In this document: piece by piece, positions 6,543-31,615 of the stretch | Layout of the letters: each line of letters begins with the position of its first letter | Position numbering within the stretch: the first letter of the stretch is position 1 | NCBI GenBank assembly: GCA_903832205.1 | Contig: CAILAH010000026.1 | Span: forward strand, 1 to 56,703 | Origin: an uncultured Candidatus Micrarchaeota archaeon | Lineage (GTDB): Archaea; Micrarchaeota; Micrarchaeia; CAILAH01 | Reading direction: 5' to 3' | Length of the DNA: 56,703 nucleotides | Position numbers and translations under genes: made by a program | The notes under the pieces: model-generated | What the model was told of the DNA's origin: nothing | The model's database searches: none | The model's input: only the letters and a program-made list of their open reading frames with translations

Positions 6543-7328
6543 TTAAAGCTGTATGCTGAATTCTAATTTTTTCCTCATTTCTGTCGGGAACGCCATTGCC
6601 ATGAGTTCCTTAGTCATGAGGCCCGCCATCGCAAGGGACACATCCGCCGGCTCCTTTATCCTGTGCAGCGCAATGCCCGCATCGAGCACGTCCCTTTCCA
6701 TGCGCTGGTCCTCTCCCAGGCTGATGAAGACCGACCTTTGCTCCTTGAGCATGCCAAGCAAGCCGTCCTTTACCAGGCCCCAGTTCTGTATGCAGCCATC
6801 GCTTACAAAGACGACGAGCGCCTGGGGAAAGACAAAGGTCCCTTGGGGCTCAACCGCCATATTCTTAGTAAGCGCAGTGAAGAGCTTGCATGCGTCAATT
6901 TCACTGGACTCCATCTGCGGCTTTTCTGCAGCTGCCTGTATCTTCGCCACCTGCTTCAGGCTGTACCAGGGGCTTATGACCGTGTCACGCGAGAAGATTG
7001 CAACGCTTACCTTTGCGTCATTCAGCATGCCCTGCTTCTTCATTCCTTCAAGCGCCAGGAGCGAAACGTTCAGGCCCTCCTGAACATGAAGATATCTATC
7101 TTTATCCATCATGGAACCGGAGCCGTCAAGGACGAACATTATCTTCGGGTCCGTCATGTAGCGGGATGCGAACGCCTTGCCCTTCTTAGGCTGTGCACGG
7201 GAAGCGGCTTTCACGCCCGCAGCATGACTTGAGGCAAATGCCGCACAATCAGCAATCGTGGCGCCTTTTGCAACTTTCTTTTTCTTCTCTGCATCATTTT
7301 GCAGGTTCTTTGTTCTTGTATTAGTCAT
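6543..7328 (-). CDS. von Willebrand factor A (VWA) domain protein
   Basis: MIDAS motif in MFVLDGSGSMMDKDRY, with later VFVSDG. The start is trimmed to ATG 7328, preceded by the SD GGTGAATACT. Confidence 0.8.
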   Translation of the reverse strand: MTNTRTKNLQNDAEKKKKVAKGATIADCAAFASSHAAGVKAASRAQPKKGKAFASRYMTDPKIMFVLDGSGSMMDKDRYLHVQEGLNVSLLALEGMKKQGMLNDAKVSVAIFSRDTVISPWYSLKQVAKIQAAAEKPQMESSEIDACKLFTALTKNMAVEPQGTFVFPQALVVFVSDGCIQNWGLVKDGLLGMLKEQRSVFISLGEDQRMERDVLDAGIALHRIKEPADVSLAMAGLMTKELMAMAFPTEMRKKLEFSIQL

Positions 7329-7352
7329 AGTATTCACCTTGTAGTATTATCG

Positions 7353-7988
7353 TTACTGTTTTGCGCCCGCATTGATGAGCAATATTGCCGCATCGTTGTG
7401 GCGGTGCTCCTTTGCGAGCATTAGCGCGGTGCTCCCAGAGCGGTCCCACAATGTAAAGTCCGCTTTTGCATCCAGGAGCGCGCGGGTAATCCTGAGAACT
7501 GAATCATGGGGCATGAGTGCCATTACCACTATAAGCGCGGTCTGGCCGTACATGTCCCTCATGTTGACGTTTGCCTTGCGCTTAATGAGCAAGTCGACTA
7601 CATCGCAGCATCCCCATTTGGCCGCAGCCATCAGTGCCGTTGCGCCCATATGGTCGGTTGCATCAATATTTGCGCCATTGTCAAGAAGCACTCCCACTAT
7701 TTCCGTTTTCGCATCTTGGGCAGCGCGGATCAGGTGCGTGAGGCCGCCGTTGTTGAGGCGCGTGTTTACCTTTACGCCCTTTCTAATCAGGTCCCTTACC
7801 ACTTCAATATCCCCGCACATAATTGCCTCAGACATTGCATGGTACATCTTCAGGTGCTCCGCATCCTCAAATGCCGGGTTCGCCGGATAAACCTTTTCCG
7901 TTGCGGGCTTCTTGGCGTTGAATTGCACGCCGACGGATTTTACACCTGCTGTCTTTCCATCCTTCTTTTTCGTTTTTGTATCATTCAT
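7353..7988 (-). CDS. Ankyrin-repeat protein (untagged)
   Basis: Repeats of the type GLTHLIRAAQDAKTEIVGVLLDNGANIDATD and GATALMAAAKWGCCDVVDLLIKRKANVN. Starts at ATG 7988 after GGTGAATACT. Confidence 0.85.
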   Translation of the reverse strand: MNDTKTKKKDGKTAGVKSVGVQFNAKKPATEKVYPANPAFEDAEHLKMYHAMSEAIMCGDIEVVRDLIRKGVKVNTRLNNGGLTHLIRAAQDAKTEIVGVLLDNGANIDATDHMGATALMAAAKWGCCDVVDLLIKRKANVNMRDMYGQTALIVVMALMPHDSVLRITRALLDAKADFTLWDRSGSTALMLAKEHRHNDAAILLINAGAKQ

Positions 7989-8010
7989 AGTATTCACCAT
8001 TAGCATAATC

Positions 8011-8844
8011 TTATTCCACGCCACCCACGCCTAAAGCCTCAGAGGGCCGGAGGTTGGCGAGGATGTACCTCTTGCCGCCGAGGTCGTTGTTGCCGCCGCG
8101 AGCCAGAGGTCTTACACCCACTCCACTTATCCTGTAAAAACTGCGCTTCTCTTCATCCGATAATTGGCCCAAGAGTAGCACTTCTGTCTGCAATGGGATG
8201 CGGGTTCTTTCATCAACCTTTCCTACAGTGCCATCCTGAAGCAGGCCGTGGAGGACGATTATTGTTTTGGGGTTAATGATTATGTTTCTGCTTTCCTCAT
8301 GAATCATTCCCGGGTCGATAAATAAGCCTATGCCCTTTTCTCCAATTGCGTTAGGTGGAATGTAACTTGCCGGAAGTGTCCAGCCGGTTTTGGAATCTAC
8401 GATGTCTTTTCCTTGAACAAAGACTCCATCTTCCTCGGGGTATGCGAGTATCTCCCTTGCCCACGCTGAATAATAGTTCCTTTCTTTCAAGGGTTCCCAC
8501 TTTTCAGAATGGACAAGATAATCATCATGAAGAACGTTTGACGGAAGATGAAGGCGATGTGTTGACACAAGCTTGAACGCCCCCAGATAATCAAATCTTA
8601 TGGAGCGATTGGTGACCGGTGCCGCTGCGATTATTATGGAATTGGCAGGACGCCCTGCTGAGAGTATTTTTATTTCCTTTCCTAAATCGTTCTCTGCATA
8701 AGTGGAAACTACATTTGCTTTTTGTAATGGCTTCTCAGGCGCGGGCTTCTCCGCGCAGAATGGGGCCTCATGGCGCCTAATCCTGCCGAGAACTTCGGCC
8801 TTCTTTTTTTGGTCGATCAATGCTCCAAAATATCTTTCTGCCAT
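8011..8844 (-). CDS. Paralogue of the DGR target protein (46551..47351) with a degenerate VR-like C terminus
   Basis: Collinear with the DGR target: NDLGKEIK, HLPSNVLHDDYLV-SEKW, YY-AWAREILAYPE-DG-FVQG, KTIIVL-GL, FYRISG-GVRP-AR, and both end in ..GVGGV. Its N terminus ERYFGALIDQ is a decayed form of the EREGLFGQDV tag. Confidence 0.85.
   Translation of the reverse strand: MAERYFGALIDQKKKAEVLGRIRRHEAPFCAEKPAPEKPLQKANVVSTYAENDLGKEIKILSAGRPANSIIIAAAPVTNRSIRFDYLGAFKLVSTHRLHLPSNVLHDDYLVHSEKWEPLKERNYYSAWAREILAYPEEDGVFVQGKDIVDSKTGWTLPASYIPPNAIGEKGIGLFIDPGMIHEESRNIIINPKTIIVLHGLLQDGTVGKVDERTRIPLQTEVLLLGQLSDEEKRSFYRISGVGVRPLARGGNNDLGGKRYILANLRPSEALGVGGVE
8031..8110 (-). repeat. VR-like segment (remote, degenerate copy of the DGR TR/VR)
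   Basis: The coding strand GCTCGC GGC GGC AAC AAC GAC CTC GGC GGC AAG AGG TAC ATC CTC GCC AAC CTC aligns to the TR GCTCGC GAC AAC AAC AAC CTC AAC AAC AGG AGG AAC ATC AAC TGC AAC AAC. Most differences fall at TR adenines, but several do not. Confidence 0.5.
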
Positions 8845-8863
8845 TAGTATTCACTTCTGGATT

Positions 8864-11044
8864 TTATTCTCCCTTCTTCTCCGCCTCTAGTATTGCGTTC
8901 ATTGTCTTCTTGGTGACGTCAATCATCAGGTTTGCCATGTCCTCATCCTTGTTGATGGGGTCGGTCACGGCATGGCCTGCCGCTGCAAAGTCCGAGGCGG
9001 TGGTGTTGCCGTATGAGCCGAGCCTTACGAAGACCACCTGGTGCCTTTTCATGGAGGCGAGCAGCTCGTCCTTCGCGGTGCTCCAGTTGTATATTTCACC
9101 GTCTGAGAGCAGGATTATCAGTGAGGGGTCCGCCTTGTCGAGCTCGGGGCACAAGACCTTCGGGTCGAGCTGCGTGCCGCCGCTCTGGTAGTTGAACATC
9201 GCCCTGCGGATTGCATCCGCCTGGGAGAAGTCCCTCCATCCGCTCACTACGGTTGCATCCGAGAACGTGACCATCTGTAATTTTATGTACGGGAGTATGC
9301 CCTCGCGCTGCAGCCATTTCATCGTTCCAACTGCGCCAAGCAATGCGAAGTGGTAGCCGCTGCCTTCAGGCCACGGGATTATCGAGTTGCTCCTGCTTCC
9401 GCAGAACATTGAGCCGGATGTGTCCACTATCCACATCACGTTCGGGAATCCCTTTATCCCCTTCATGAACGGGAAGTTCATCTCGTACTTGAACCTGTGT
9501 GCGCCAAGCGTTGGTTCGCCCTCGTCACTTAGCATAGGGCCGAATATGTCCCTCTGCTCGTGCACGTCAGGGTCGAATTCCTCCGGCTTGAACTTCTTCA
9601 CCGGCATGCTCATCCCCTTGTCCTCCTCTTCCGCAGTGATCGGGATGTCTGCCGCCTCAATCTCATAGTAGTATTGCACTGCTTCGGCCGCATCCATAAA
9701 GTGCGGCACGCCTGCGGAGCCTGCGCCCCTGCCGCGTCCCTTTCCCTTTGCGCGGTTGATGCGGTCCTCCATTACTTTCTTTCTCTGGTCGTCCTTCTCC
9801 AGCTCCTTGTCCATGGTGTCGCTGCCTGGGCCGCTTTTCTTCTCGTTTACCTTATCATCCTCGTTTGAGCCGTCCGATATGTCCTTTGAATCGTATTCGT
9901 CGCCGCTGTCTTCAATGTCCCCGTCCGGGCGCTGCTCTTTCTTTCCCGAGCCGCCGCCCTCGCCGTCCTCCTTTTCGCCCTTTTCCTTTTCGTCCTTTTC
10001 CCCTGAGCCCTTGCCGCCATCCTTGTCCTCCTTGCCGTCGCCAGGCTTGTCGGATTTTTCCTTGCCGCCCTTTCCTGCACCTGAGCTTTCGTCAACGTCT
10101 GCCTGGCCTTGGCCCTGGCCTTCTCCTTCTCCCTCGCCCTGCTGGCCTTCCCCCTCACCTTCCTGGGATTCGCCCTGCTCACTCTGGCCCTGGCCGCCAT
10201 CCTTGTTTTTCTTGGGCTTTGAGTTGCCCTTAACTATCTTCACCAAATGATGGGTGTTCTTTGCGAATATCTTCGCCATTGAGACCCAGTTCTTCTCGTT
10301 CATGAGGACCTTGTGCATGTCCTCCTGGGACATGTTTTGAACGCCCCATTCCTTCAGCACGTTCTCCGCGGCGGTCCTTGCCTCTGCAAGCTCGGCGCCT
10401 GAAAGCTTTGAGAAGTTGGGCTGGAGCAGTTTCCTGTCCTCCGCATCGCCCCACACGTGCAGCTGCACGAGCATGTAGGCCGCGAAGAATTTCGTGAAAT
10501 GCCCTGTCTCTGAGTAGAATACGCTGAGCGACCTCTCGCCCTCATACCTGAGGTGCGCGTTATCGGCTATGTCCTCGAAGCAGTTTGCGAGGTGCTGGAT
10601 GAGGCTCTTGCTTTTCTTTCCTGCTGATTTCAAAAAGTCTGCTATGCCGTCCTGTATGTCCACGTGCATGGGGACCGAGTGCGGGCACACCTTCCAGTGG
10701 CCGATCTCGTGGTCGCCTGCAAAGTGGCACGCCTGCTTCACGGGGTCGATTATGCCGTGGTCTGAGCAGTATTTGATTACGATGCCCCTGTCGGGGTTCC
10801 AGAATACGTTGAGGCGCACGTGCGCGTCCCACTGCTCAAGGCCGATTTCAGCCTCGAGCGGGCGGCCCTTGATGTTGGCATTGAGCGGCTCAATCTTGAT
10901 TGTGCCACCAATCATGCCCCTCTCAACCCTCAGGCTGGTGAGGTCCCTGCGGATTTCTTCGAGCATTTGGGGAGTAGTAAAAGCCTTAATTTTGCGCTTA
11001 GGCTTGTCGGATTCTTTCTTTTTGAATATTGAGAACATGCCCAT
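8864..11044 (-). CDS. Metallopeptidase-like (HExxH) N-domain, ~150-aa acidic G/E/K/D low-complexity linker and C-terminal VWA domain (DUF2201/COG3864-like MoxR partner, family call tentative)
   Basis: FAGDHEIGHWKVCPH contains HExxH. The linker is GEGEGQQGEGEGEGQGQGQ...KDEKEKGEKEDGEGGG. VWA MIDAS motif in MWIVDTSGSMF, with later IILLSDGE. Confidence 0.8.
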   Translation of the reverse strand: MGMFSIFKKKESDKPKRKIKAFTTPQMLEEIRRDLTSLRVERGMIGGTIKIEPLNANIKGRPLEAEIGLEQWDAHVRLNVFWNPDRGIVIKYCSDHGIIDPVKQACHFAGDHEIGHWKVCPHSVPMHVDIQDGIADFLKSAGKKSKSLIQHLANCFEDIADNAHLRYEGERSLSVFYSETGHFTKFFAAYMLVQLHVWGDAEDRKLLQPNFSKLSGAELAEARTAAENVLKEWGVQNMSQEDMHKVLMNEKNWVSMAKIFAKNTHHLVKIVKGNSKPKKNKDGGQGQSEQGESQEGEGEGQQGEGEGEGQGQGQADVDESSGAGKGGKEKSDKPGDGKEDKDGGKGSGEKDEKEKGEKEDGEGGGSGKKEQRPDGDIEDSGDEYDSKDISDGSNEDDKVNEKKSGPGSDTMDKELEKDDQRKKVMEDRINRAKGKGRGRGAGSAGVPHFMDAAEAVQYYYEIEAADIPITAEEEDKGMSMPVKKFKPEEFDPDVHEQRDIFGPMLSDEGEPTLGAHRFKYEMNFPFMKGIKGFPNVMWIVDTSGSMFCGSRSNSIIPWPEGSGYHFALLGAVGTMKWLQREGILPYIKLQMVTFSDATVVSGWRDFSQADAIRRAMFNYQSGGTQLDPKVLCPELDKADPSLIILLSDGEIYNWSTAKDELLASMKRHQVVFVRLGSYGNTTASDFAAAGHAVTDPINKDEDMANLMIDVTKKTMNAILEAEKKGE

Positions 11045-11054
11045 TTTATCATCC

Positions 11055-11255
11055 TTAGATATAGAAATTGGCGCTTAACTCATATTTATACCTTCCGCTC
11101 ATCACGAGGAAGGGGTTGTAGACCTTTTGGGGCCATTCCGCCTGAGGATCAAGATTTGCCGGAAAGTGCCTGAATGTGCCTTCCATGCCATCCCAGGTGC
11201 CCGTTGCGTTATCGGGCTCCCTATTCCCTATGCGAATATTGCTATTGATTATCAT
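11055..11255 (-). CDS. Small hypothetical protein (66 aa)
   Basis: A strong SD precedes the start (GGTGAAACGCA-ATG). Its ATG overlaps the upstream stop (ATGA). It ends 10 nt before the metallopeptidase-VWA start. No recognisable family. Confidence 0.55.
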   Translation of the reverse strand: MIINSNIRIGNREPDNATGTWDGMEGTFRHFPANLDPQAEWPQKVYNPFLVMSGRYKYELSANFYI

Positions 11256-11995
11256 TGCGTTTCACCATACTTTTTCTTGATGATGCTTTCTGCAGCAGGG
11301 GAGCCATTGGCAGTAAGCTCTTTCATGCTGTAATCAAACAGGTCGGTTTTCATCAGTTTCGTGATCTCCGCCTCATTGGTTGGCTGGCCGTAGGCGACTG
11401 CTACAACAGCCTTCTGTATACTTTCAAGCTCCTCTATCTTGCGCTTTCCCTTCATGTACATGATTGCGCAGACTGCGGTTAGCCCACTCATAAGCAAAGT
11501 GCCAAAGCCGAGTATCACTGTAATTGCAAATGCGCCGTAAGTCCGGTCAAACAGGCTGACTCCAATCAGATTAAGGGCAAAACCCACGCTGGAGACTGCT
11601 GCGCAGGACGGCATTATATAATAGAACATTGCCTTCCTGAGCCTGTCCTTGAAAATCAGGCTCTCGGCGGCAAGGCGCTCATTTGCAATCATATCGTTAA
11701 TCTTGCCGAGCGCGCCGGCTATTTTCTCATCGCGCGTTTGTTCAAGCTTCTCCGATGCGGCCTTTTCCAGGTCGCCATCCTTCACGGATTGCTCGAGCGA
11801 TTTTACCTCTTTATCGGAAACTTTGACGGTGCCCGGCTTAGTGCCGAGAATCCCCTCTTGTTCATATTTGCTAAGCATCGGGTCTGGGAGCTTTTTCTTG
11901 GCGGATTTTATTGATGCTGCAACCTTGTTCCCCTTTGCTTCCGCTCCCTGCTTGCTTTCTTCGGCGAGCTTTTGCAAAAATGGGTCCTTATTCAT
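11252..11995 (-). CDS. Tagged array protein, membrane-hairpin class
   Basis: Has KDPFLQKLAEE followed by the tag KLPDPMLSKYEQEGILGTKPGTVK. A long hydrophobic pair lies at AMFYYIMPSCAAVSSVGFALNLIGV...AFAITVILGFGTLLMSGLTAVCAIMY. Start is ambiguous between 11995 and 12004. Confidence 0.85.
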   Translation of the reverse strand: MNKDPFLQKLAEESKQGAEAKGNKVAASIKSAKKKLPDPMLSKYEQEGILGTKPGTVKVSDKEVKSLEQSVKDGDLEKAASEKLEQTRDEKIAGALGKINDMIANERLAAESLIFKDRLRKAMFYYIMPSCAAVSSVGFALNLIGVSLFDRTYGAFAITVILGFGTLLMSGLTAVCAIMYMKGKRKIEELESIQKAVVAVAYGQPTNEAEITKLMKTDLFDYSMKELTANGSPAAESIIKKKYGETQ

Positions 11996-12815
11996 CGGCA
12001 TCATCCTCTTTTTCCTCGCCTTCGAAATAGCCAAATTTCATATGCAGCCACCTCTCCGTGAACTTGATTGCCTCCACTGCGGAGGGGAAGCGCTCAAGCT
12101 CTATAAGATCAGAAATAAAATCTGATTTTGTAGATTGAACTGAATCTTGGACCTTTGTATATTTCCGGCTTTCAAATGTAAGCGCTTTCTTCAGGTCTTT
12201 TTCTGAGGCCGGCTGGTTGTCACGGATGGACTTGAGCACGCGTACGCGGGCGCTTTCCGCTTTCATTCTAGCATAAGTTGCCAGCAAAACGAGCGATATT
12301 ATTATTGTTGCAAAACCGCCAAACCAAGCTGCCCCATGCGTAAGCACGTTATCTGGCTGAAAATAGAAAGTTGTTGCAACTGCCGTTGATGTGATTGCAA
12401 TGGATGTCGCCAATCCTTTTGCCAATTGTGTGACCCCATGCCTAAAGCCAGTGACGCCGTTTTCCCTGCTATCAATGAGCTTCTGGGCCTTTGAGTGCAG
12501 TTTTTCCTGCATCCTTGCATTTTTCCTGTCTGTCTCCACCTTTTCGAGTTTAGCCTGCAAGGCGGCTTCCTGTTCGGCCTCAGCGAGCGCATCATCAAGG
12601 GTAATCTCCTTCCCGCGCTCTCCCTTCACGAAGCCGGGCTTTGCGCCAAAGAGGCCTTCGTCGTTGTATTTGCCTATTATGGGGTCGGGGAGGCGGGGCT
12701 TTTTCGATGTTACCATAGTAACATTAGGTTCTTTCGCATTTGTTTTTCCCATATCTGCCTGCGCTTTTGCATCCTTCTCCACTGGCATTTTCGAATTGAT
12801 ATTCATGAGCATCAT
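11988..12815 (-). CDS. Tagged array protein, membrane-hairpin class
   Basis: Tag: NVTMVTSKKPRLPDPIIGKYNDEGLFGAKPGFVKGERGKEITL. A coiled-coil stretch follows, then the hydrophobic pair LATSIAITSTAVATTFYF...AAWFGGFATIIISLVLLATY. Confidence 0.85.
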   Translation of the reverse strand: MMLMNINSKMPVEKDAKAQADMGKTNAKEPNVTMVTSKKPRLPDPIIGKYNDEGLFGAKPGFVKGERGKEITLDDALAEAEQEAALQAKLEKVETDRKNARMQEKLHSKAQKLIDSRENGVTGFRHGVTQLAKGLATSIAITSTAVATTFYFQPDNVLTHGAAWFGGFATIIISLVLLATYARMKAESARVRVLKSIRDNQPASEKDLKKALTFESRKYTKVQDSVQSTKSDFISDLIELERFPSAVEAIKFTERWLHMKFGYFEGEEKEDDADE

Positions 12816-13564
12816 TTCCTGGCATTTCCTATACTAATATAAATTTCCCTAATGCGGTCTCTGCCAGCCACGTTGTTTGTAAGCCATTCATGGAATTCTT
12901 TGTCATCTTTTACGTTCCTTATGTCCTTATCTGTATAGGTGGCGTTAGGCTCCTTGCTTATGTAATCGAGCAGCTTTAATTCCGAATCATACTTGGGCAT
13001 CGTGCGCGCCTTGAGTAGTTTTGTTAACAAAATGTCAAGTGTTAGATAGAGGACCATATATGAGGCTATCCATCCCGTCCATGACCAGAAAGCATTGGGC
13101 ATCTTATCAAATAAATTCTCATATAGGGACATGGCGCCAGGTTTCCACTGGTCTATAATGGTTAAGGAAGAAATGAGACTGGCCATGTGGGCGATATCAT
13201 CGCCCTTCCTTTTCTTCGTATCCCTGTGCTTTTGCACATGGGACTTCATATCGGCAACCATTGGCCGTACATCTTTCATCTCGTTTTTTTCTTTCTCTTC
13301 CTGCGCCTTAAGCGCTTCCTCAAGCTTCTGCGCTTCCAATTCTGACGCTGCCTTTTCTGCCGCTTCGCTTTTCATTTTTTTCGCGGCATCATCAATGCTC
13401 ATCTCTTTCTTGCCGAGTTTTACCATTCCGGGCTTCGCGCCGAGGATTCCCTGCTCTTCGTATTTGCCGAGTATCGGGTCCGGGAGCTTTTTTGTGGCAG
13501 GTTTGTCAGGATTTAAAACAGGCTTCTGCGCGCCATTGAGTTTCTGTAAAACTGCCATGATCAT
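12812..13564 (-). CDS. Tagged array protein, membrane-hairpin class
   Basis: Tag: KLPDPILGKYEEQGILGAKPGMVKLGKKEMSI. An E/K-rich helix follows, then a hydrophobic region AFWSWTGWIASYMVLYLTLDILL. Confidence 0.85.
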   Translation of the reverse strand: MIMAVLQKLNGAQKPVLNPDKPATKKLPDPILGKYEEQGILGAKPGMVKLGKKEMSIDDAAKKMKSEAAEKAASELEAQKLEEALKAQEEKEKNEMKDVRPMVADMKSHVQKHRDTKKRKGDDIAHMASLISSLTIIDQWKPGAMSLYENLFDKMPNAFWSWTGWIASYMVLYLTLDILLTKLLKARTMPKYDSELKLLDYISKEPNATYTDKDIRNVKDDKEFHEWLTNNVAGRDRIREIYISIGNARK

Positions 13565-24434: not shown

Positions 24435-25241
24435 CTACATGCGGCCGATGTTTCTTTCCCTTCTCTTTTTTGCATCGTAAAGTTTTTCATTTAAGACAGC
24501 ACTCATGCGCCCGTACAGCTCGGCCGCTTCTGCGGAGCCTTCATCTTCGAGCTTCTTAAAGCAGTCATGCAGCTCCTCACCATAATAGTTACAGTTGAGT
24601 ATGTTGCTGTCCCTGCACATGGCCACCGCGGCCTTGAGGGCATCATCGCTTATCTTCTCGCCTTTCTCAAACGCATCCAGCACCCTGATGCCAGCCATGG
24701 CCGCCGTGCGGCGCTTTCGCGACCACACTACATCCGGCTTATCAAATGTCATCGCTATCCGCACGGTTGCTGCAAAAAGGATCAGGCCGCCAGCGGCGTA
24801 GAGAGGGACACTTAGCCACCAGCTCTTCTGTGGCAATGCTAACACGACCAGCGACGCCCCCATTCCCATGATTACTGCGCCAATTTTCCAAAAGCTCCGT
24901 ATCTGCTTGGTTGCATTCTCGACCTGCATTTCCAACATGCGCCTGGTATCGCTCAGTAACTCTTCCCTTTTCCTGCGCTTCGTATCTTCGTCACTCACCA
25001 GCTTTTCCTGCACCGTCTTCTCAGCGAGCTCACCCGCCACGTCAAGCGTCACTTCCTTCCCTTTCACTGCCACCATTCCTGGTTTTGCTCCAAGAATCCC
25101 CTCTTCCCTGTATTTGTCTAATATGGGGTCGGGGAAGCGGGGCTTTTTCGATGTTACTATAGTAACATTGGCTTCACTTGCCTTCCTATTATTAGTATTA
25201 GTTAGTACCGGCTTTTTCTGAATATCCTTCAGCCCTGCCAT
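24435..25241 (-). CDS. Tagged array protein, membrane-hairpin class
   Basis: Tag: NVTIVTSKKPRFPDPILDKYREEGILGAKPGMVAVKGKEVTL. Hydrophobic pair: IGAVIMGMGASLVVLAL..LSVPLYAAGGLILFAATV. C-terminal LDAFEKGEKISDDALKAAV. Confidence 0.85.
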   Translation of the reverse strand: MAGLKDIQKKPVLTNTNNRKASEANVTIVTSKKPRFPDPILDKYREEGILGAKPGMVAVKGKEVTLDVAGELAEKTVQEKLVSDEDTKRRKREELLSDTRRMLEMQVENATKQIRSFWKIGAVIMGMGASLVVLALPQKSWWLSVPLYAAGGLILFAATVRIAMTFDKPDVVWSRKRRTAAMAGIRVLDAFEKGEKISDDALKAAVAMCRDSNILNCNYYGEELHDCFKKLEDEGSAEAAELYGRMSAVLNEKLYDAKKRRERNIGRM

Positions 25242-25261
25242 CGTTGAAAATTGGGATAATT

Positions 25262-25277
25262 AGATGTTTTAAACCTT
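25262..25277 (-). promoter_or_regulatory. Internal TATA element of the array
   Basis: On the minus strand, AAGGTTTAAAACATC is centred about 29 nt upstream of ATG 25241. It lies in a 181-nt non-coding gap (25242-25422). Confidence 0.45.
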
Positions 25278-25422
25278 CTGATTATAGACGGGCTGCATAA
25301 TGCCTCAATTGACGAAAGTTATAGAAAAGTATAACTTTGGTCGTTTCATCAAAAATCGCTTACGACTGAACAATCTGCCTGGCGCTTTAAGCCCTCATCA
25401 GCCGGATGCTTAAGCCTTGCCA

Positions 25423-26178
25423 TCACGGGTAGGGAGGGAAGGGGAACTTTCCCGCGCCCCTCATTCCCGCCGTGCTGAGGAGCTTGACCTGTTCCTGAAA
25501 TTCCTTATCCTTTTCCACCAGCTTTATGTCCTTTGCATCCGGCTCAAGATCGCCCTGGATGTTTTTTAGGATGCGCAGCTTATTCTCGACATGGGCGATT
25601 TCTGCTTTACAATTAACCCGGCCAAGGGACGTGTAATAAGTATAGACTAGCATTCCCATGAATGTCAGCACGCCTAATAAATCAGTAAGAACATAATGCT
25701 CGGACCCGAACCTAACCACGATGCTTACTATGGGCGCAACAGTCCCGATAGCGCCGCACCAAAGCGACGCATTAAACCGCCTGTGGTCCTTGCGCTCGGA
25801 TTCAAGCTCCAAGCCAACCTCCCTGAAAATATGATCAAATAAAACCGGCCCTGCATTCTGCTTGAATGCATCATCCGCCCTTCCTGACCTAAGCATCCTT
25901 CCTGACCTAAGCATGCTTATTATTTGCCGTATATTCTCTTTTTCTGCGCGCTCTCTCGCTTCAGCCATCTCTTCATCATGCGCCTTTGCATCCTTGAGCG
26001 TAATCTCCTTCCCGTCCTTGTCCTTTACCATGCCGGGCTTTACGCCAAGAATTCCCTCATCATTATATCTGGAAAGCATCGGGTCAATCCTATGAATAGA
26101 GGTCCTTTTACTCCCTGCATCCGCTGCCGTTTCCTTGCTGAAAACCTTTCTAATGCCCGCAAACCTAGGGCTGTGCAT
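25423..26178 (-). CDS. Tagged array protein, membrane-hairpin class
   Basis: Tag: HRIDPMLSRYNDEGILGVKPGMVKDKDGKEITL. Hydrophobic pair: LWCGAIGTVAPIVSIVV...LLGVLTFMGMLVYTYY. Start is 26178 or 26187. Confidence 0.85.
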   Translation of the reverse strand: MHSPRFAGIRKVFSKETAADAGSKRTSIHRIDPMLSRYNDEGILGVKPGMVKDKDGKEITLKDAKAHDEEMAEARERAEKENIRQIISMLRSGRMLRSGRADDAFKQNAGPVLFDHIFREVGLELESERKDHRRFNASLWCGAIGTVAPIVSIVVRFGSEHYVLTDLLGVLTFMGMLVYTYYTSLGRVNCKAEIAHVENKLRILKNIQGDLEPDAKDIKLVEKDKEFQEQVKLLSTAGMRGAGKFPFPPYP

Positions 26179-26899
26179 CGTCTTCATCCTCGGTCATCTC
26201 ATACTCGTACAGTGCGCGGGCTTCCGCGGCTCCCTTGACATCCGCCTTCTCAAGCTTGTTCAGGACTTCTACCATTTCATCCAGGCCCCTTGTCTTTGCA
26301 ATGTCCTTGGTGTCCACAACCGCCCCTTCCTTCATTGATTTTACCACGCGCATCGCCGCTTCCATTTTTCTCTTCTTGAATATTGGAAAGCCCAACTTCT
26401 TCAGTAATGCTACTGCACAAATCGCGCAAAATCCCGAGGCAATATATAGGCCGCAATCCACCAGGAACAGTATGGGCACGCGCAATACTGCTTCAGAGGC
26501 GTTGAGGAAACCCCCGGCAGTGCCGGTTACAACTGCTGCTCCGGAAAGCCAGGATATCCCGTTTACAGCAAACTGCATTTTCTCATGCTTCTCGGCCAGA
26601 TCTCCCTCAACCGATTTGAATACAAACACCAATTTCATCCTAGTTAACTCGTTTAATTGCGCCTCCGTCTCAGCCTTCTCTTCGGCTTTTTGCGTTGCAA
26701 TTTTCTCTTCCTTCTCCTTTGCAAAAAGCTCCTTTGCCCTCTCGACCGTAATCTCTTCGCCCCCCTTTCCCTTCACAAGGCCCGGTTTTGCCCCAAGTAT
26801 CCCTTCATTATCATACTTATCAAGAATAGGGTCAACCTTGCGGATAGGCTTCTTGTTGTCTTTTTTCTCCGCTGGCTTTCCATCCTTGAATATTGGCAT
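26165..26899 (-). CDS. Tagged array protein, membrane-hairpin class (MxI[LF]K..KPAEK subfamily)
   Basis: MPIFKDGKPAEKKDNKKPIRKVDPILDKYDNEGILGAKPGLVKGKGGEEITV. Hydrophobic pair: ISWLSGAAVVTGTAGGFL...VPILFLVDCGLYIASGFCAICAVALL. Confidence 0.85.
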   Translation of the reverse strand: MPIFKDGKPAEKKDNKKPIRKVDPILDKYDNEGILGAKPGLVKGKGGEEITVERAKELFAKEKEEKIATQKAEEKAETEAQLNELTRMKLVFVFKSVEGDLAEKHEKMQFAVNGISWLSGAAVVTGTAGGFLNASEAVLRVPILFLVDCGLYIASGFCAICAVALLKKLGFPIFKKRKMEAAMRVVKSMKEGAVVDTKDIAKTRGLDEMVEVLNKLEKADVKGAAEARALYEYEMTEDEDDAQP

Positions 26900-26904
26900 G
26901 AAAA

Positions 26905-27651
26905 TCATTCCTCTTTTATCGCCTCGATCTTCTTCCCCAGAATATTTTCTACGCGCTCACGCAATTTTTTGGCCTCATCAGTGCCGGTTTCCTCCGCTAA
27001 CCGCGCAATGGATTGGTTCAGCTTGTAATTAAAGGACAGGGCTTTGATAAGGTCTTTTTCAGATATTTTTTCACCTTTTTCATAAGCATCAAGAATCTTC
27101 AGCCCAGCTTTCCAGCCGGAGAAATGCTCTATACACCACCGTGTCCCGGACTCATCATCATCGTTCATATCGCCCATGTCAAAAATGACCCGAAATGCTG
27201 CGCTGCCAGCCACAAGGGTCATTATAACACCTATTATGCCCAGTGGGATAAGTATCACAACATCAGAAAAATAATACGCCGCTCCGGCTAAAGACGGCCC
27301 CATGACTCCTAAAATGAAATTAAAACGCAGGAAAGACTTAGCATGGCCCTTGTACCCTTCTTGATCCTCTTTTATGGAATTCCTCGCCTCGTTTATTATC
27401 TCAAGCTCCCGTGCACGCCGTTCCTTGAGCGCCATTTCTTTTTTCTCAAGCTCCAATTCTGCGCTTTCCTTTTTTGCTGCAATCTCCGCCTGCTCGATTG
27501 TCAGCTGCTCGCCTTTCTTTCCTTTCACAAGGCCGGGCCGTGTACCTAGAATTCCTTCCTCCCTATACTTATCAATAATAGGGTCAACCCTGCGGATAGG
27601 CTTCTTATCTGCATTCTTCTCCGCTGGCTTTCCATTCTTCAATATTTCCAT
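26905..27651 (-). CDS. Tagged array protein, membrane-hairpin class (MxI[LF]K..KPAEK subfamily)
   Basis: MEILKNGKPAEKNADKKPIRRVDPIIDKYREEGILGTRPGLVKGKKGEQLTI. Hydrophobic pair: FNFILGVMGPSLAGAAYYF..VVILIPLGIIGVIMTLVAGSAAF. C-terminal LDAYEKGEKISEKDLIKAL. Confidence 0.85.
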   Translation of the reverse strand: MEILKNGKPAEKNADKKPIRRVDPIIDKYREEGILGTRPGLVKGKKGEQLTIEQAEIAAKKESAELELEKKEMALKERRARELEIINEARNSIKEDQEGYKGHAKSFLRFNFILGVMGPSLAGAAYYFSDVVILIPLGIIGVIMTLVAGSAAFRVIFDMGDMNDDDESGTRWCIEHFSGWKAGLKILDAYEKGEKISEKDLIKALSFNYKLNQSIARLAEETGTDEAKKLRERVENILGKKIEAIKEE

Positions 27652-27662
27652 AATCATTTCCC

Positions 27663-28445
27663 CTATTCCATGAGAATTTTTTTGATGCGATTGTGCAGCG
27701 CCAGTGCTTTCTCATTGCCCGTGGTTTCCGCAAGCTCCTTCATGCAACGCACAAGTTTCGAATCTGTTTCCAGGCCAAAAAGCTCTTTCAGCAACTTGTG
27801 GTCCAGGTCAAGCGCAGTCCTAAGCTTCTCATCGCTGATTTCCTCGCCCTTTTCGTAGGCGCCAAGCACCTCCAGCGCCGCTTTGCTGCTGTATATATTG
27901 CTGATTGAGTTTCTAGCATTTTCTATTTTATAGCGGTCCTGCCGGTCATCTGCTGTGCCAAAGACCATTTCTTTCATATAACCCAGCGTTCCAACAACTG
28001 TTAAAACCCCCAAAATGCCGACAAATCCCCACGACCAATGGGACATGAAATGGGCCGTTGTGAACAGTGCTGCACTAACCGAATTTATGATGCTAATATC
28101 CCTCAGGAACACGCGGGCTTCCTTTCTCCCTTCATTATAATCGCTGGTTATGGAATTCCTTGCATTGCTTAGTATATCCGCCGCTCTTTTGCTCAGCTCC
28201 ATCTCCTTGGCACGCTGCACCTGAAGTGCTTCCTCTCTCGCAATCCTCTCCAAATCCTCCTTCTCTTTCCTTTCCGCATCCTTTGCCTCTTCGACGGTCA
28301 GCTCCTTTCCATTCCTCTTTATCTTGCCTGGCCTCACTCCAAAAAGGCCTTCCTCCCTATACTTATCAATAATAGGGTCAACCCTGCGGATAGGCTTTTT
28401 CTCTGCAATCTTTTCCGCTGGTTTTTCACTCTTTAATATTGGCAT
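27663..28445 (-). CDS. Tagged array protein, membrane-hairpin class (MxI[LF]K..KPAEK subfamily)
   Basis: MPILKSEKPAEKIAEKKPIRRVDPIIDKYREEGLFGVRPGKIKRNGKELTV. The 5' end overlaps the upstream gene by ~20 nt. C-terminal LGAYEKGEEISDEKLRTAL. Confidence 0.85.
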   Translation of the reverse strand: MPILKSEKPAEKIAEKKPIRRVDPIIDKYREEGLFGVRPGKIKRNGKELTVEEAKDAERKEKEDLERIAREEALQVQRAKEMELSKRAADILSNARNSITSDYNEGRKEARVFLRDISIINSVSAALFTTAHFMSHWSWGFVGILGVLTVVGTLGYMKEMVFGTADDRQDRYKIENARNSISNIYSSKAALEVLGAYEKGEEISDEKLRTALDLDHKLLKELFGLETDSKLVRCMKELAETTGNEKALALHNRIKKILME

Positions 28446-29235
28446 TGGAATCATCCTTGCTATTGTAGATTTCAATCTTGCACTTTTTCTTCTCGAGTAT
28501 AATCGCTTGCGCGCGCTCAAGCAGGGCTTTCGCTTCTGTAGAGTCCGCCTCCTCCGCTAGCGCTTTCAGGCAACTGCGCAAATCCCCATCGAGATTAACC
28601 GCCTTCATAAGGTCCCTATCGGTTATGGGTTCGCCCTTTTCGAACGCATCAAGCACCCTCTGTTCCACTTTCCAGGCGGAATATTTGCCAAAAGCATTCC
28701 TTGCTTGGGAGAAATCATTCTTATGATAGTAATCGAAATTATCGTCGAAGAAAGCAGCGTAAAGCATTTTATAGGTTGTACTAATACATGCAAACCCAAC
28801 GATACATAGAAGCGGTGTCCATACTAGGTGGGAAGCATATAATCCCCCTGCAATAACTCCTGGACCTGACAAGCCGACGAATGTTGCCAGAAGCGAAAAA
28901 TTCCGTATCTCCTCTTTCCCTTCCTTTATGTTGTCTTCAATGGAGCTCTTTGCCGTGCTTATTATCTCAAGCTTCCTTTTGCCCTGCTCCATCTCCTTGG
29001 CACGCTGCTCAAGCAACGCCTCTTCCCTCGCCGCTTTCTCCAAATCCTCCTTTTCCTTCTTTTCTGCGGCCGTTAATTCCTGAACGGTCAGCTCTTTCCC
29101 GTTCTTTGTTACCATTCCTGGCTTTGTGCCAAGGATTCCCTGTTCATCGTATTTGCCCAGAATAGGGTCAATCCTGCGGATAGCCTTCTTATCTGCAATC
29201 TTTTCCGCTGGTTTTTCACTCTTCAATATTGCCAT
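28426..29235 (-). CDS. Tagged array protein, membrane-hairpin class (MxI[LF]K..KPAEK subfamily)
   Basis: MAILKSEKPAEKIADKKAIRRIDPILGKYDEQGILGTKPGMVTKNGKELTV. Hydrophobic pair: LLATFVGLSGPGVIAGGLY...TPLLCIVGFACISTTY. C-terminal LDAFEKGEPITDRDLMKAV. Confidence 0.85.
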   Translation of the reverse strand: MAILKSEKPAEKIADKKAIRRIDPILGKYDEQGILGTKPGMVTKNGKELTVQELTAAEKKEKEDLEKAAREEALLEQRAKEMEQGKRKLEIISTAKSSIEDNIKEGKEEIRNFSLLATFVGLSGPGVIAGGLYASHLVWTPLLCIVGFACISTTYKMLYAAFFDDNFDYYHKNDFSQARNAFGKYSAWKVEQRVLDAFEKGEPITDRDLMKAVNLDGDLRSCLKALAEEADSTEAKALLERAQAIILEKKKCKIEIYNSKDDSNANIKE

Positions 29236-29240
29236 AATCA

Positions 29241-29975
29241 TCAGTTCACATTCCTTAGAAGCGCCTCTGTGCGCGCGAACAGGATCTTGGCGCGTTCGGA
29301 ATTTGCCTGTGCAAGGTCCTTGATACAGGTGTAGAGGTAGCCCGTGTGGTAAATCCCCTCACGCAGCTCCCCATCACTGATCTCCTTCCCCTTCTCAAGC
29401 GCATCAAGGGCTTTCAGCGCCGTCTCCAACGACCTCATCTCCCTTCGGGTGTGGAAAATGTCGGGAAGAAAAGTTCCTGACCTCATATAGGAGCCAACGA
29501 CAACAGAAAAATTCCACATGCCCGTTATGAATGCTTGAAGGGCCGATATGGCTTCTAGTATTGGGCTTTCTGTCGTAAATGCCAAAACGGTTGATTCAAC
29601 AAATAAGAATGCAAAAGTGGAGCAGAGGATTATGTTTCTCTTCCATTCACTGGTTTTTCCCTTAAGCGTGACTTTCATATTATTCCTTGCATCTGCGATT
29701 ATATCTTGCTCCCTGGCGTTTTGCTCCCGGGCTGCCTTCGCTTTTTCCACATTCTCCATGTGCGCTTCCAGTTTCCTATCAAGCGCGGCATCCTTTTTTA
29801 CAAATGCATCTGCCTGCTCGGCTGTCATCTCCTTTCCGTTTACCTTAACCATTCCCGGCTTCACGCCGAGAATACCTTCCTCGCCATACTTGCTCAGGAG
29901 CGGGTCCAGGGGCTTTCGGCCTTTCCCGTTATTGGAATTCAGCGACAATGTGGTTGATTTTTGTGTGATTGCCAT
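29241..29975 (-). CDS. Tagged array protein, membrane-hairpin class
   Basis: MAITQKSTTLSLNSNNGKGRKPLDPLLSKYGEEGILGVKPGMVKVNGKEMTA. The middle is hydrophobic. C-terminal LDALEKGKEISDGEL. Confidence 0.85.
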   Translation of the reverse strand: MAITQKSTTLSLNSNNGKGRKPLDPLLSKYGEEGILGVKPGMVKVNGKEMTAEQADAFVKKDAALDRKLEAHMENVEKAKAAREQNAREQDIIADARNNMKVTLKGKTSEWKRNIILCSTFAFLFVESTVLAFTTESPILEAISALQAFITGMWNFSVVVGSYMRSGTFLPDIFHTRREMRSLETALKALDALEKGKEISDGELREGIYHTGYLYTCIKDLAQANSERAKILFARTEALLRNVN

Positions 29976-29986
29976 CCACTTACACC

Positions 29987-30772
29987 TTACGTATCAATTA
30001 CGGGTTTGGATTTCATCCATCTCTTCCTGCCATCCGCGTCGTCAATGTCAAGGACCAGGCCACCCTGCTTGAACATCTCGCCCCTGATGTAATACGCCGC
30101 CCTGCTGCCCTTCGCCATAAACTCATGAAGCGTTTCTATAAATTTCCAATCATTCTTCAGAACGCTAATTTCCTTCTGGAGATTCATGCAGTTGTCTGCT
30201 TCTATCGCCCCAATCAGTTTTTTCATCGCCTTGATTTCTTGGTTTAGCCGCCTTTGCATAAGCTCTTCAACTGCAATTATGGCAAATATCCCGCTACCAA
30301 AGAATGCGGGTATGCTAAGGGTTGCAAACAACGCCGGAAAATCAAGCAAAATGGATGCTGTAACTATGCTTCCCGCCGTCAAGCCGCCGGCTATTAGTGA
30401 CTTAATTATTGTTGAATTTGATAAGGCATCTGGAACTTTCTTTTCTGGAAGAACCCCGCTCAGGAATGACCGCGCCTTGCTTGATATTTCATTTGGATCG
30501 CCAACATTATGCCCCATTGTCTTGAGCCCTTCCTCTGCCTCGGCTAGAATCTCCATATTGAATTTTTCCGGCGGTCTTTCTTTTGCCTTCTTCTCTGCAA
30601 TCTTATTTGCCTCTTTGAGCGTGAGTTCCTTTCCCCTCTCTCCCTTAACCATTCCTGGCTTGGCGCCGAGTATTCCCTCAGCAGTATACTTATCGAGTAT
30701 CGGGTCGGGAAGCTTCCTGCCTTTCCCGTTACCAGAATTCAGCGACAATGCGATTGGTTTTTGTGACAACAC
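29987..30772 (-). CDS. Tagged array protein, membrane-hairpin class
   Basis: GTG/TTG start. (M)LSQKPIALSLNSGNGKGRKLPDPILDKYTAEGILGAKPGMVKGERGKELTL. ~50-aa bilobed hydrophobic block: IIKSLIAGGLTAGSIVTASILLDFPALFATLSIPAFFGSGIFAIIAV. Confidence 0.8.
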   Translation of the reverse strand: MLSQKPIALSLNSGNGKGRKLPDPILDKYTAEGILGAKPGMVKGERGKELTLKEANKIAEKKAKERPPEKFNMEILAEAEEGLKTMGHNVGDPNEISSKARSFLSGVLPEKKVPDALSNSTIIKSLIAGGLTAGSIVTASILLDFPALFATLSIPAFFGSGIFAIIAVEELMQRRLNQEIKAMKKLIGAIEADNCMNLQKEISVLKNDWKFIETLHEFMAKGSRAAYYIRGEMFKQGGLVLDIDDADGRKRWMKSKPVIDT

Positions 30773-30781
30773 ATTATCAAC

Positions 30782-31615
30782 TCAGGGGATTATTGGGCCA
30801 TGCCCTTTTGGTAGCTGCGCTTGGCGTTGGAGATCTTCCTTGCGCTCGTTCACGAACGCCCTGTTATCGAGCTTCTCAAGCTCGTCGAGTATCATCTTGG
30901 CGGTGGCAATGCCTCCCATAGTGCTTTCAGGCACGAATGAACGGTAGCCGTTCTTCAGTTTCTTGAGAATCTGCCTCAAATCATCATCGTGCATTACCTG
31001 TGGGAGCTTGTCCTTAATGCCTTCAATTCCTTTGTTCTGCTTCACTGCCTCAATAATTTCGCGCTTGATTTTAGACTCATTTTTCATTTTCGCCTCATAG
31101 CGCATGAACATAAGCGCTGTAACCAGTAGTGTCGCAAGGGCGGCATAAATCTTTGGGAATGAATAAAAATGATGCGTGATTGCAAGCGGAACAAAACAAA
31201 AGATGCCTGAAATACCAACGGATTTCGTGGTGTTGAATACCCTGCGGGCAGTTTTCTTATCGGCTTCAGCCGAGTACAACTCCGTCTTTGCTTTCCTTAT
31301 CATCGCATTGATGTGGATTTCGGACGGGACTTCAAGCCCCGAAAGCACCTGGGTTTCATTATACTTTTCAATCTCTTCCGCCACCGGCTTGTATACAATT
31401 GTGGCCTGCACTTCAGCCTCTTCCTTTTTCGCCTGCTCTTTTGCCTGCTTAACTGTGAGCATTTCGCCCTTCTTTCCCTTCACCATTCCCGGCTTTGCAC
31501 CGAGGATTCCCTCATCATCGTACATGCCGAGGATTGGGTCGGGCAGCTTTTGCGCAGCCTTAGGTTTCTTATTAGGAATACGGAAGATCTTGTGTAGCAT
31601 ATCCTTTGCTGCCAT
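30782..31615 (-). CDS. Tagged array protein, membrane-hairpin class (first gene of the array)
   Basis: Tag: QKLPDPILGMYDDEGILGAKPGMVKGKKGEMLTV. Hydrophobic pair: VGISGIFCFVPLAIT...IYAALATLLVTALMFM. Confidence 0.85.
   Translation of the reverse strand: MAAKDMLHKIFRIPNKKPKAAQKLPDPILGMYDDEGILGAKPGMVKGKKGEMLTVKQAKEQAKKEEAEVQATIVYKPVAEEIEKYNETQVLSGLEVPSEIHINAMIRKAKTELYSAEADKKTARRVFNTTKSVGISGIFCFVPLAITHHFYSFPKIYAALATLLVTALMFMRYEAKMKNESKIKREIIEAVKQNKGIEGIKDKLPQVMHDDDLRQILKKLKNGYRSFVPESTMGGIATAKMILDELEKLDNRAFVNERKEDLQRQAQLPKGHGPIIP

Follow-up and report, generated by a model that had tools for sequence, protein, structure and literature searches.

Why should one short peptide stand near the N terminus of 23 proteins encoded in a single gene array, when the bodies behind it are of at least six types? 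The question is raised by positions 6543–31615 of a 56,703-nucleotide stretch from an uncultured Candidatus Micrarchaeota archaeon (contig CAILAH010000026.1 of GenBank assembly GCA_903832205.1, forward strand), the whole of which is called the window hereafter; the contig encodes TFB, Kae1 and NurA and is therefore archaeal. A first-pass annotation, made from the letters alone, had proposed that the peptide is an address, docking or processing signal. As described below, the peptide, referred to hereafter as the tag, is a lineage-specific module of approximately 14–35 residues that is under selection as a peptide. From the sequence we tentatively read it as a docking handle for a MoxR-VWA remodelling machine or for the complex that this machine builds, a possibility that we regard as serious. 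The MoxR-VWA pair, whose central role the first-pass annotation did not recognise, is the only conserved genomic partner of the tag, and docking is therefore favoured among the three functions proposed.

To define the tag, a six-frame translation of the whole window was scanned with the relaxed regular expression (regex) DP[ILMFV][ILVMF]x5-6G[ILV][LFI]G, with 50 shuffles as the control. The motif DP[IML][LIV]xx[YVIA]xx[EDQ]G[IL][LF]G was found 24 times, always on the minus strand, and not once in the 50 shuffles. Twenty-three copies lie within 11252–31615, exactly the number of tagged products first reported for the array, and one lies at 47292–47333. A back-translated DNA pattern for the commonest (Y...PG) subtype gave 17 matches against 0 expected. 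The tag starts 9–75 residues from the N terminus of the longest open reading frame (ORF). Four residues are invariant in all 24 copies: D, P, the G that precedes [I/L] and the final G. The third position is I in 19 copies, M in four and L in one, the fourth is L, V or I, the seventh is Y in 17 of 24 and otherwise V, I or A, and the tenth is E in 16, D in five and Q in three; positions 12 and 13 are [I/L][L/F], and any residue (x) is accepted at positions 5, 6, 8 and 9. Two flavours can be recognised, class A (DPILxKYxxEGILGxKPGMVKxxGKExT) and class B (DPIVAQVEKDGLFGKxLPDV or DPxLDAIEREGLFGxDV). A degenerate half-tag, DPFLxKLxEE, is present further upstream of the tag in the products of the genes that start at 11252, 13564, 17805 and 19345 and in the database protein P0026. 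A second short box, NVT[MI]VTS[KR][KR] ('NVTMVTSKKP'), stands three residues upstream of the tag in the products of 11988–12815, 17805–18797, 23625–24434 and 24435–25241, and also in P0007 and in the contig L001, both of which are described below.

The codons of the invariant D, P, G and G are scrambled at their third positions (the proline codons are CCG in seven copies, CCC in seven, CCT in six and CCA in four), which indicates that conservation acts on the peptide and not on the DNA. Gene conversion and a DNA or RNA regulatory element were considered as causes of the conservation and are excluded by the same scrambling. In an alignment of 16–25 membrane-class paralogs there are seven invariant columns, all of them within the tag, while the bodies are approximately 20% identical.

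The tag had not been recognised as a described motif at first pass, and this was borne out: it matched no family in Pfam, NCBIfam, PADLOC, PHROG or PDB. A tag-only profile gave no match at E≤0.01 in a word-indexed set of 5.8 billion proteins, a database for which the profile is too short. A profile search of public databases, as the first-pass annotation had advised, was informative when run against 1.84 billion cluster representatives (E≤1e-3). It returned 44 matches, of which 20 were window proteins, six were repeat-protein false positives and 18 were other tag-bearing clusters. Among these 18 are membrane hairpins, solenoids and six ankyrin proteins, as well as P0034, P0007 and P0041, the last with a soluble body of a new kind. 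They derive from the sample of the window itself (ENA ERZ1426812), from a handful of small JGI contigs and from a single Logan run. The class A tag DNA pattern had no matches in GTDB species genomes and none in IMG/VR, and its two matches in JGI metagenomes fell on high-GC contigs with no tag-bearing ORF. Synteny with the window, at 78–90% protein identity, extends to two Logan contigs, L001 and L005. L005 has an extra tagged solenoid gene between the 66-residue ORF and the 726-residue VWA gene of the array, and two of its members are just 47–56% identical to their window counterparts; the content of the array therefore turns over between close strains.

The bodies behind the tag fall into at least six types that could not be related to one another by BLAST or by hidden Markov model (HMM) comparison. 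Sixteen of the 23 tagged array products form one membrane-hairpin family in which the tag is followed by a charged helix, a hydrophobic hairpin and, at the C terminus, a helical domain; the 16 can be aligned over their whole length and are therefore paralogs. The remaining bodies are an ankyrin-repeat protein, a divergent alpha-solenoid family (genes starting at 20728, 16822 and 15282), the product of 19925, a small helical pair (18788 and 19345) and the globular type of 46551. Thus the claim that one tag is joined to unrelated bodies stands, and the phrase 'rather than plain paralogy' that accompanied it was overstated, since 16 of the 23 belong to one tandemly duplicated family. The tag is nevertheless an autonomous module and not a part of each fold, as had been proposed. 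P0007 has three tandem tags ahead of its ankyrin domain, P0034 combines the tag, ankyrin repeats and a membrane hairpin in one protein, two ankyrin proteins lack the tag, and the untagged product of 8011–8844 is 52% identical to the tagged product of 46551–47357.

The N terminus of the 8011–8844 product, MAERYFGALIDQKKKAEVLGRIRRHEAPF, aligns by position with the tag and has neither the DP nor the EG. In the L005 counterpart (3853–4662) it differs by one substitution in the first 38 residues, while the rest of the protein is 56% identical. The segment is a tag that has decayed and come under a different constraint, or else it mimics the tag.

Structure prediction with AlphaFold2 (AF2) placed the start of the tag helix at the proline (D as N-cap, P as N1) and its end at the glycine, so that in these models the tag can be described as an amphipathic helix, nine residues long and capped at both ends (by a Gly at the C-cap), to which a hydrophobic hook, [IL][LF]G, is attached. 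The two classes were modelled differently. In the solenoid encoded by 20728–21459 the tag is an isolated helix (predicted local distance difference test, pLDDT, ~50) flanked by disorder and separated from the body (pLDDT 85–94) by approximately 25 disordered residues. In the membrane-class product of 26905–27657 (overall pLDDT 84.6) the tag helix, residues 26–34, is accompanied by a beta-hairpin at residues 43–53 (tag region pLDDT 72–90), beyond which long helices cross the membrane region and lead to the C-terminal helical domain. Foldseek comparison of the class A and solenoid models with PDB gave no match at E≤1e-3. Likewise, scans of representative tagged bodies, the 726-residue VWA protein and the 8011/46551 family against Pfam, NCBIfam, PADLOC, PHROGs and PDB sequences returned only Ank, VWA_2 and AAA matches.

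In a Kyte-Doolittle scan, class A proteins had no hydrophobic segment before residue 115, and class B proteins had none at all. No hydrophobic h-region or twin-arginine was found within approximately 30 residues of the N terminus, that is, no signal-like segment near the tag, in agreement with the earlier view that it is not a Sec, Tat or class III pilin signal. The class A hairpins have K/R on both flanks, which predicts an N-in/C-in topology and hence a cytoplasmic location for the tag, the C-terminal domain, MoxR and the VWA proteins alike.

The untagged gene in the middle of the array, 21465–22778, encodes an AAA+ ATPase of the MoxR clade. It matches Pfam bpMoxR, AAA_5 and AAA_3 (E ~1e-6), its Walker A (GEGKT) and Walker B (DE) motifs are invariant in the MoxR alignment, and the profile of that alignment matches the MoxR-family structure 2r44 (E 4.8e-6). 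Both VWA genes lie at the array end, and an intact MIDAS (the metal ion-dependent adhesion site; DxSxS...T...D) is co-encoded with the ATPase. The larger VWA protein (8864–11044, 726 residues) has three parts: an N-domain, an acidic Gly/Glu/Lys-rich linker of ~200 residues and a C-terminal VWA domain with the MIDAS DTSGS...T...D, in which D541, S543, S545, T624 and D648 are invariant among 16 homologs. In the same alignment the N-domain has the signature HExxH...CP...H...NxFED..N; H116, C120, P121 and D158 do not vary, 13 of the 16 homologs have E113, and H112 and E157 are further residues of the motif. The N-domain matched no peptidase family in Pfam, NCBIfam or PDB at permissive thresholds. 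The VWA domains of 6543–7337 and 8864–11044 are 29% identical, and both proteins stop right after that domain. Homologs of the 726-residue protein adjoin MoxR in 27 other loci.

The linkage between tag, MoxR and VWA is conserved beyond the window lineage. The nearest MoxR homolog, 50% identical, is encoded on the JGI contigs L006 and L007, where the gene directly after MoxR bears a variant tag, ENPIIKQAAQDGVFGKKLPEV, at the product start ...KKENPIIKQAAQDGVFGKKLPEV, a class B variant with N-P in place of D-P. This gene is followed by an ortholog of the 726-residue VWA gene (45–52% identical). The order MoxR, tagged solenoid, VWA adaptor looks like an ancestral core that was inflated on both sides of MoxR in the window lineage. 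On these two contigs (L006 2121–4752, L007 2678–5309) MoxR is preceded by a gene for a prenyltransferase-like alpha/alpha-toroid and a gene for a 585-residue dynamin-like GTPase, neither of which occurs near the window array.

The layout of the array is as follows. All real genes in 6543–31615 are on the minus strand, as first described, and the interval contains 29 ORFs, 23 tagged and six untagged. The genes are not 23 consecutive ones, as had been stated: the tagged run is split by the MoxR gene, and the low-coordinate end (6543–11255) consists of five untagged genes. The three larger gaps that had been noted are present (58 nucleotides before the ATPase gene, 181 nucleotides at 25241–25423 and 75 nucleotides before the first gene); the other junctions overlap or measure up to 19 nucleotides, rather than 12 or less. 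Class A rows other than 26905–27657 rest on the regex match, alignment and hydropathy.

6543–7337, minus strand: small VWA protein of 264 residues, untagged, MIDAS DGSGS (weak Pfam VWA_2 match; 81% identical ortholog in L005)
7353–8024, minus strand: ankyrin-repeat protein, untagged (Pfam Ank families, E 7e-22; the HMM detected no tag)
8011–8844, minus strand: 277-residue protein, untagged paralog of 46551–47357 with a degenerate N terminus at the tag position (BLASTP, 52% over 250 residues, and alignment)
8864–11044, minus strand: three-part VWA adaptor of 726 residues, untagged (alignment of 16 homologs)
11055–11255, minus strand: conserved ORF of 66 residues, untagged (identical at 49 of 67 positions to its positional counterpart in L005)
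11252–12034, minus strand: class A tagged membrane hairpin, tag 11843–11884, with an upstream half-copy DPFLQKLAEE
11988–12815, minus strand: class A tagged membrane hairpin, tag 12645–12686
12812–13567, minus strand: class A tagged membrane hairpin, tag 13439–13480 (ortholog in L001)
13564–14451, minus strand: class A tagged membrane hairpin, tag 14257–14298 (ortholog P0006 in L001)
14451–15281, minus strand: tagged ankyrin-repeat protein, tag 15213–15254 (Pfam Ank, E 4e-31; regex)
15282–16811, minus strand: tagged all-alpha protein of 509 residues, tag 16635–16676 (regex; weak HMM link to the 20728/16822 family)
16822–17808, minus strand: tagged all-alpha protein, tag 17671–17712 (regex, HMM comparison)
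17805–18797, minus strand: class A tagged membrane hairpin, tag 18618–18659
18788–19348, minus strand: tagged small helical protein, tag 19247–19288 (regex; 56% identical to its paralog 19345–20031)
19345–20031, minus strand: tagged small helical protein, tag 19768–19809, with an upstream half-copy (regex, BLAST)
19925–20725, minus strand: tagged alpha-helical protein, tag 20588–20629, for which no relatives could be detected in the set (regex, HMM comparison)
20728–21519, minus strand: tagged alpha-solenoid that follows directly downstream of MoxR as the 'third component', tag 21367–21408, true start probably at 21459 (AF2)
21465–22778, minus strand: MoxR-class AAA+ ATPase of 437 residues, untagged, Walker A GEGKT, Walker B DE (Pfam bpMoxR, AAA_5, AAA_3)
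22837–23625, minus strand: class A tagged membrane hairpin, tag 23500–23541
23625–24434, minus strand: class A tagged membrane hairpin, tag 24237–24278
24435–25241, minus strand: class A tagged membrane hairpin, tag 25089–25130
25423–26187, minus strand: class A tagged membrane hairpin, tag 26044–26085
26165–26908, minus strand: class A tagged membrane hairpin, tag 26792–26833
26905–27657, minus strand: class A tagged membrane hairpin, tag 27544–27585 (modelled with AF2)
27663–28520, minus strand: class A tagged membrane hairpin, tag 28338–28379
28426–29241, minus strand: class A tagged membrane hairpin, tag 29128–29169
29241–29975, minus strand: class A tagged membrane hairpin, tag 29865–29906
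29987–30772, minus strand: class A tagged membrane hairpin, tag 30665–30706
30782–31615, minus strand: class A tagged membrane hairpin, first gene of the array, tag 31499–31540
46551–47357, minus strand: the 24th tagged gene, outside the array (15 kb away), tag 47292–47333, globular body (regex, BLASTP, alignment)

More distant MoxR-VWA loci show a parallel arrangement. An alignment-based scan for MoxR in GTDB species genomes returned 45 loci, all at most 35% identical, in archaea (Woese-, Pace-, Nano-, Micr- and Aenigmatarchaeota) and in bacteria (Aerophobetes, WOR-3, Clostridia and Paceibacterota). From its MoxR relatives the window organism is probably a member of DPANN. In the bacterial loci with a VWA gene found, that gene lies 0–0.5 kb after MoxR. 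In 11 DPANN loci the MoxR-to-VWA distance is 0.7–8.4 kb, and in 10 of these the slot holds 1–10 co-directional genes. Tandem paralogs within a DPANN slot have a lineage-specific N-terminal peptide of their own in common. This is clearest in the locus L038, where ten paralogs carry MTINKGKTNEELVQKYLARLKAREQEP and the first 30 alignment columns are 79% identical, compared to approximately 30% in the bodies; L035 has three copies of MSSELSAYDKRIVERILAKRS, and L014 has three copies of IKPFIAGKEPV. One peptide type, MTI(N)xGKTxEELVxxYLAR, is common to three Woesearchaeota metagenome-assembled genomes (L038 7367–15719, L023 4945–5871 and L036 11251–12162). Homology between the window tag and this Woesearchaeota peptide was considered and is rejected for now, as hhalign shows no similarity. 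A limited literature search found no earlier description of the array or of the slot pattern in DPANN. One slot gene of the nanoarchaeotal locus L014 (4745–5719) encodes a GXGXG (glutamate-synthase-type beta-helix) domain behind IKPFLAGKEPV.

What the MoxR-VWA pair might do with the tag is suggested by related systems. In characterised pairs the VWA protein captures a peptide or an acidic patch of the target, which is then remodelled at the expense of ATP (PMC7159879, section 'The MoxR and vWA components'). NorD is built from an N-domain, a disordered linker and a VWA domain with a target-binding MIDAS, and its N-domain has been suggested to give specificity (PMC9976466). We favour docking because this established mechanism coincides with the conserved linkage of tag, MoxR and VWA, their predicted co-location in the cytoplasm, the modularity of the tag and selection at the peptide level. 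Fast-diversifying, cytoplasm-facing proteins (membrane hairpins, ankyrin proteins and alpha-solenoids) would be coupled through the tag to the MoxR and VWA proteins encoded in their own array. The 726-residue VWA protein, with its NorD/CbbO-like layout, would capture the tag, and a MoxR hexamer would then, at the cost of ATP, release the tagged protein, remodel it or assemble it. As a whole, the cluster would be a hyper-expanded archaeal MoxR-VWA 'ternary' system in which the slot between ATPase and VWA genes and the region upstream of MoxR are filled with tagged clients or effectors. We infer that the VWA protein is the receptor for the tag, and the events after binding are likewise our inference.

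Several observations weigh against docking. The tagged gene 46551–47357 is not adjacent to a visible MoxR or VWA gene, and tagged genes on other, short contigs of the same sample also have none visible beside them. At least 24 clients would be unusual for one chaperone. In the models the D-P pair is explained well enough as the N-cap and N1 residues of a helix; given this, the N-P of L006 and the Q at position 10 in three of 24 copies, no strictly conserved acidic ligand for the MIDAS is evident. The membrane-class tag, modelled with fairly high confidence (pLDDT 72–90), could form a mini-domain instead of an extended peptide. Finally, the tag was found in none of the 45 distant MoxR-VWA loci, and since there is no profile similarity between the tag and the peptides of the other lineages the parallel is one of design, so that any 'general principle' rests on analogy.

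A bolder extension of the docking hypothesis, which we consider doubtful, is that with the tag the 'client code' of a MoxR-VWA machine would become readable for the first time: DPANN loci would maintain slots of peptide-sharing genes, expanded here to at least 24 tagged proteins, as an anti-invader or host-directed arsenal that is loaded, activated or inserted via the peptide. For most MoxR-VWA pairs the substrates and the recognition rule are not known. Here candidate substrates are encoded beside the machine, and the short linear peptide they share makes recognition directly testable. The slot pattern in DPANN would carry the logic of ternary systems, with effectors coupled through adaptors, over from multicellular bacteria to ultra-small archaea. 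Because array content varies between close strains, the array may also be a record of conflict in DPANN, whether between symbiont and host or between virus and host.

Other explanations of the tag must be weighed against these data. Plain paralogy with occasional exon-like shuffling would make the peptide the best-conserved structural element of a single lineage-specific family that has expanded, for example a membrane-proximal or oligomerisation helix, with no addressing role. The membrane family, with 16 of the 23 products and a shared architecture, is what this predicts, as are the weak relationship among the alpha-solenoid members and the near-identical N termini of neighbouring genes, which point to tandem duplication. 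Paralogy does not account for the tag on ankyrin, solenoid, small helical and 46551-type bodies, for three copies in P0007, for close paralogs in which the tag is dispensable, for a membrane class whose sole invariant part is the tag on bodies ~20% identical, or for a variant tag kept beside MoxR at 50% MoxR identity, and we judge it very improbable. The least probable of the alternatives, in our view, is an export or host-targeting signal (PEXEL/RxLR-like) on an effector arsenal that a DPANN episymbiont delivers to its host, with the AAA+ ATPase powering loading. Ankyrin bodies are typical of symbiont effectors. The repertoire diversifies between strains, with an extra tagged gene in L005 and some members at 47–56% identity where neighbours are at 78–90%; the MoxR family is found chiefly in DPANN and other candidate phyla with small genomes, and a gene for an SLT/LysM wall hydrolase adjoins the array. 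However, the cluster has no evident translocon or pore gene; MoxR ATPases are remodellers and not known threading translocases, and two thirds of the tagged proteins are membrane hairpins with both ends predicted to be cytoplasmic.

The basic, variable leader of 8–74 residues in front of the tag could instead be a propeptide, cleaved at or near the tag by the HExxH N-domain of the 726-residue VWA protein so as to mature or activate the tagged proteins. Leaders are indeed variable and poorly conserved, the signature H-E-x-x-H...C-P...H...N-x-F-E-D is conserved in the N-domain of the VWA partner, and peptidases are common accessories of MoxR-vWA conflict systems (PMC7159879). The lack of a peptidase match for that domain, the loss of the catalytic Glu in three of 16 homologs, and the poor fit of leader cleavage with the three tandem tags of P0007 and with tags nine residues from the start (14451–15281 and 46551–47357) make processing rather improbable. 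A further alternative, which we regard as unlikely, is a homotypic adaptor of the EAD type. Tags would bind each other, and the solenoid copy beside MoxR would be the 'core' that recruits the other proteins into a hetero-oligomer regulated by MoxR-VWA. The tag follows the EAD rule (Kaur et al. 2020, PMC7159879) in being a small, non-enzymatic, N-terminal and lineage-specific module, of which one copy belongs to a conserved component next to MoxR and persists in L006, others are on neighbouring genes and elsewhere, and several can occur in one protein (P0007); the helix plus beta-hairpin mini-domain modelled for the membrane class (pLDDT 72–90) also fits. At 14–35 residues, however, the tag is shorter than a typical domain, the solenoid-class tag is a lone low-confidence helix in the model, no copy is fused to MoxR or VWA, and the solenoid, with no Pfam match, is not recognisable as VMAP or iSTAND.

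The EADs of MoxR-vWA 'ternary' conflict systems (PMC7159879) are nonetheless the closest described concept. In both cases a small, lineage-specific, non-enzymatic N-terminal module is present on a conserved component next to MoxR-vWA and on many varied bodies, often repeat or scaffold proteins, and several copies per protein are possible. The tag is on different bodies, adjacent and elsewhere (23 adjacent genes and one distal, at least six body types, and more on other contigs); it is alpha or alpha+beta in the AF2 models (a helix or a helix plus hairpin) and, outside the window, was found in only ~18 clusters among 1.84 billion representatives; and it is on the solenoid directly after MoxR in the window and in L006/L007, a solenoid that is not recognised as VMAP, iSTAND or GAP1. 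No tag was found on the MoxR or VWA proteins. Scanned against Pfam at E≤0.1, the tagged proteins had no described family over the tag, in a Pfam release for which the presence of the ten EAD models was not verified. Unlike EAD systems, the present one is in an archaeal (DPANN-like) host rather than a multicellular bacterium, its module is a peptide of 14–35 residues rather than a domain, there are no enzymatic effectors, the dominant body is a two-helix membrane hairpin, and the array is far larger (23 genes in cis). No Pfam match to VMAP, iSTAND or FtsH was found among the scanned array proteins. Because the diagnostic VMAP, iSTAND, FtsH or beta-propeller components are absent, the locus is not a member of those subtypes.

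In Midasin/Rea1 a MoxR-clade AAA+ protein with a MIDAS domain recognises the N-terminal module of the assembly factors Ytm1 and Rsa4, and then removes or remodels these proteins by means of ATP. This precedent, which is cited in PMC7159879, resembles the array in that a small conserved N-terminal module is common to different proteins of a MoxR-clade AAA+ system. In that case the module is a ubiquitin-like folded domain in which one Glu is key, the system is eukaryotic, and it has two clients, not dozens. PEXEL and RxLR motifs and encapsulin cargo-loading peptides are likewise short, near-terminal peptides on many unrelated or fast-evolving bodies, the genes for which are often clustered. These systems use signal peptides and proteases or a shell protein. 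The array has no signal peptide, shell or translocon, and there is no sequence similarity. NorQ/NorD and CbbQ/CbbO (PMC9976466, PMC4660213) have the same general composition as the window pair, a MoxR AAA+ protein and a VWA adaptor made of an N-terminal specificity domain, a disordered charged linker and a C-terminal VWA with intact MIDAS, which is expected to bind the target. They act on one defined enzyme client each (cNOR and rubisco) via a surface acidic patch, whereas the array has at least 24 candidate clients with a linear peptide, and no family match was found at the sequence level. MoxR-vWA-beta-propeller systems (PF20030, bpMoxR) are approached by the borderline score of the window MoxR against that model (27.2 bits, cut-off 27) and have a variable membrane-associated third component, but the window VWA proteins have no propeller. 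In sum, the tag matches no described family, and the locus would appear to be a MoxR-VWA system of an archaeon in which the adaptor is only the size of a peptide and the array in cis is unusually large.

A provirus or mobile-element origin of the array was considered and rejected: base composition is uniform, the only PHROG match was to a generic ATPase, and there were no viral-contig matches. It is also opposed by synteny with L005 that crosses the left boundary of the array.

Beyond that boundary, 5208–6491 (plus strand) encodes an SLT lytic transglycosylase fused to LysM that adjoins the array and is 85% identical in L005; that an archaeon should encode a murein hydrolase may point to a bacterium as partner or prey, or to horizontal transfer. 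The gene 2486–5230 (minus strand) encodes a Cys-rich protein of 914 residues that has a hydrophobic segment at its N terminus, an anchor at its C terminus and the HExxH-like motif YHEYCHH; no Pfam family matches it, and it is kept in L005 (897 residues). Immediately downstream of the distal tagged gene 46551–47357 is a reverse transcriptase gene (RVT_1; 45055–46451, minus strand) with an RT-16 RNA (Rfam, 73 bits) on its 5' side. A membrane protein of 1229 residues (47760–51449, minus strand) has long coiled regions, a zinc-ribbon-like CPVCGR...CDSCG and a terminal Roadblock/LC7 domain (Pfam E 2e-9). Two further genes on the plus strand encode unusual fusions, a CBS pair with a Cas4-like nuclease that has a C-terminal Cys cluster (38821–40047) and a metallophosphoesterase with an RNase H-like domain (52096–53505). 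The signal recognition particle (SRP) RNA at 51471–51730 (plus strand) scored best against the bacterial large SRP model (81 bits) and not against an archaeal model, although the contig is archaeal.

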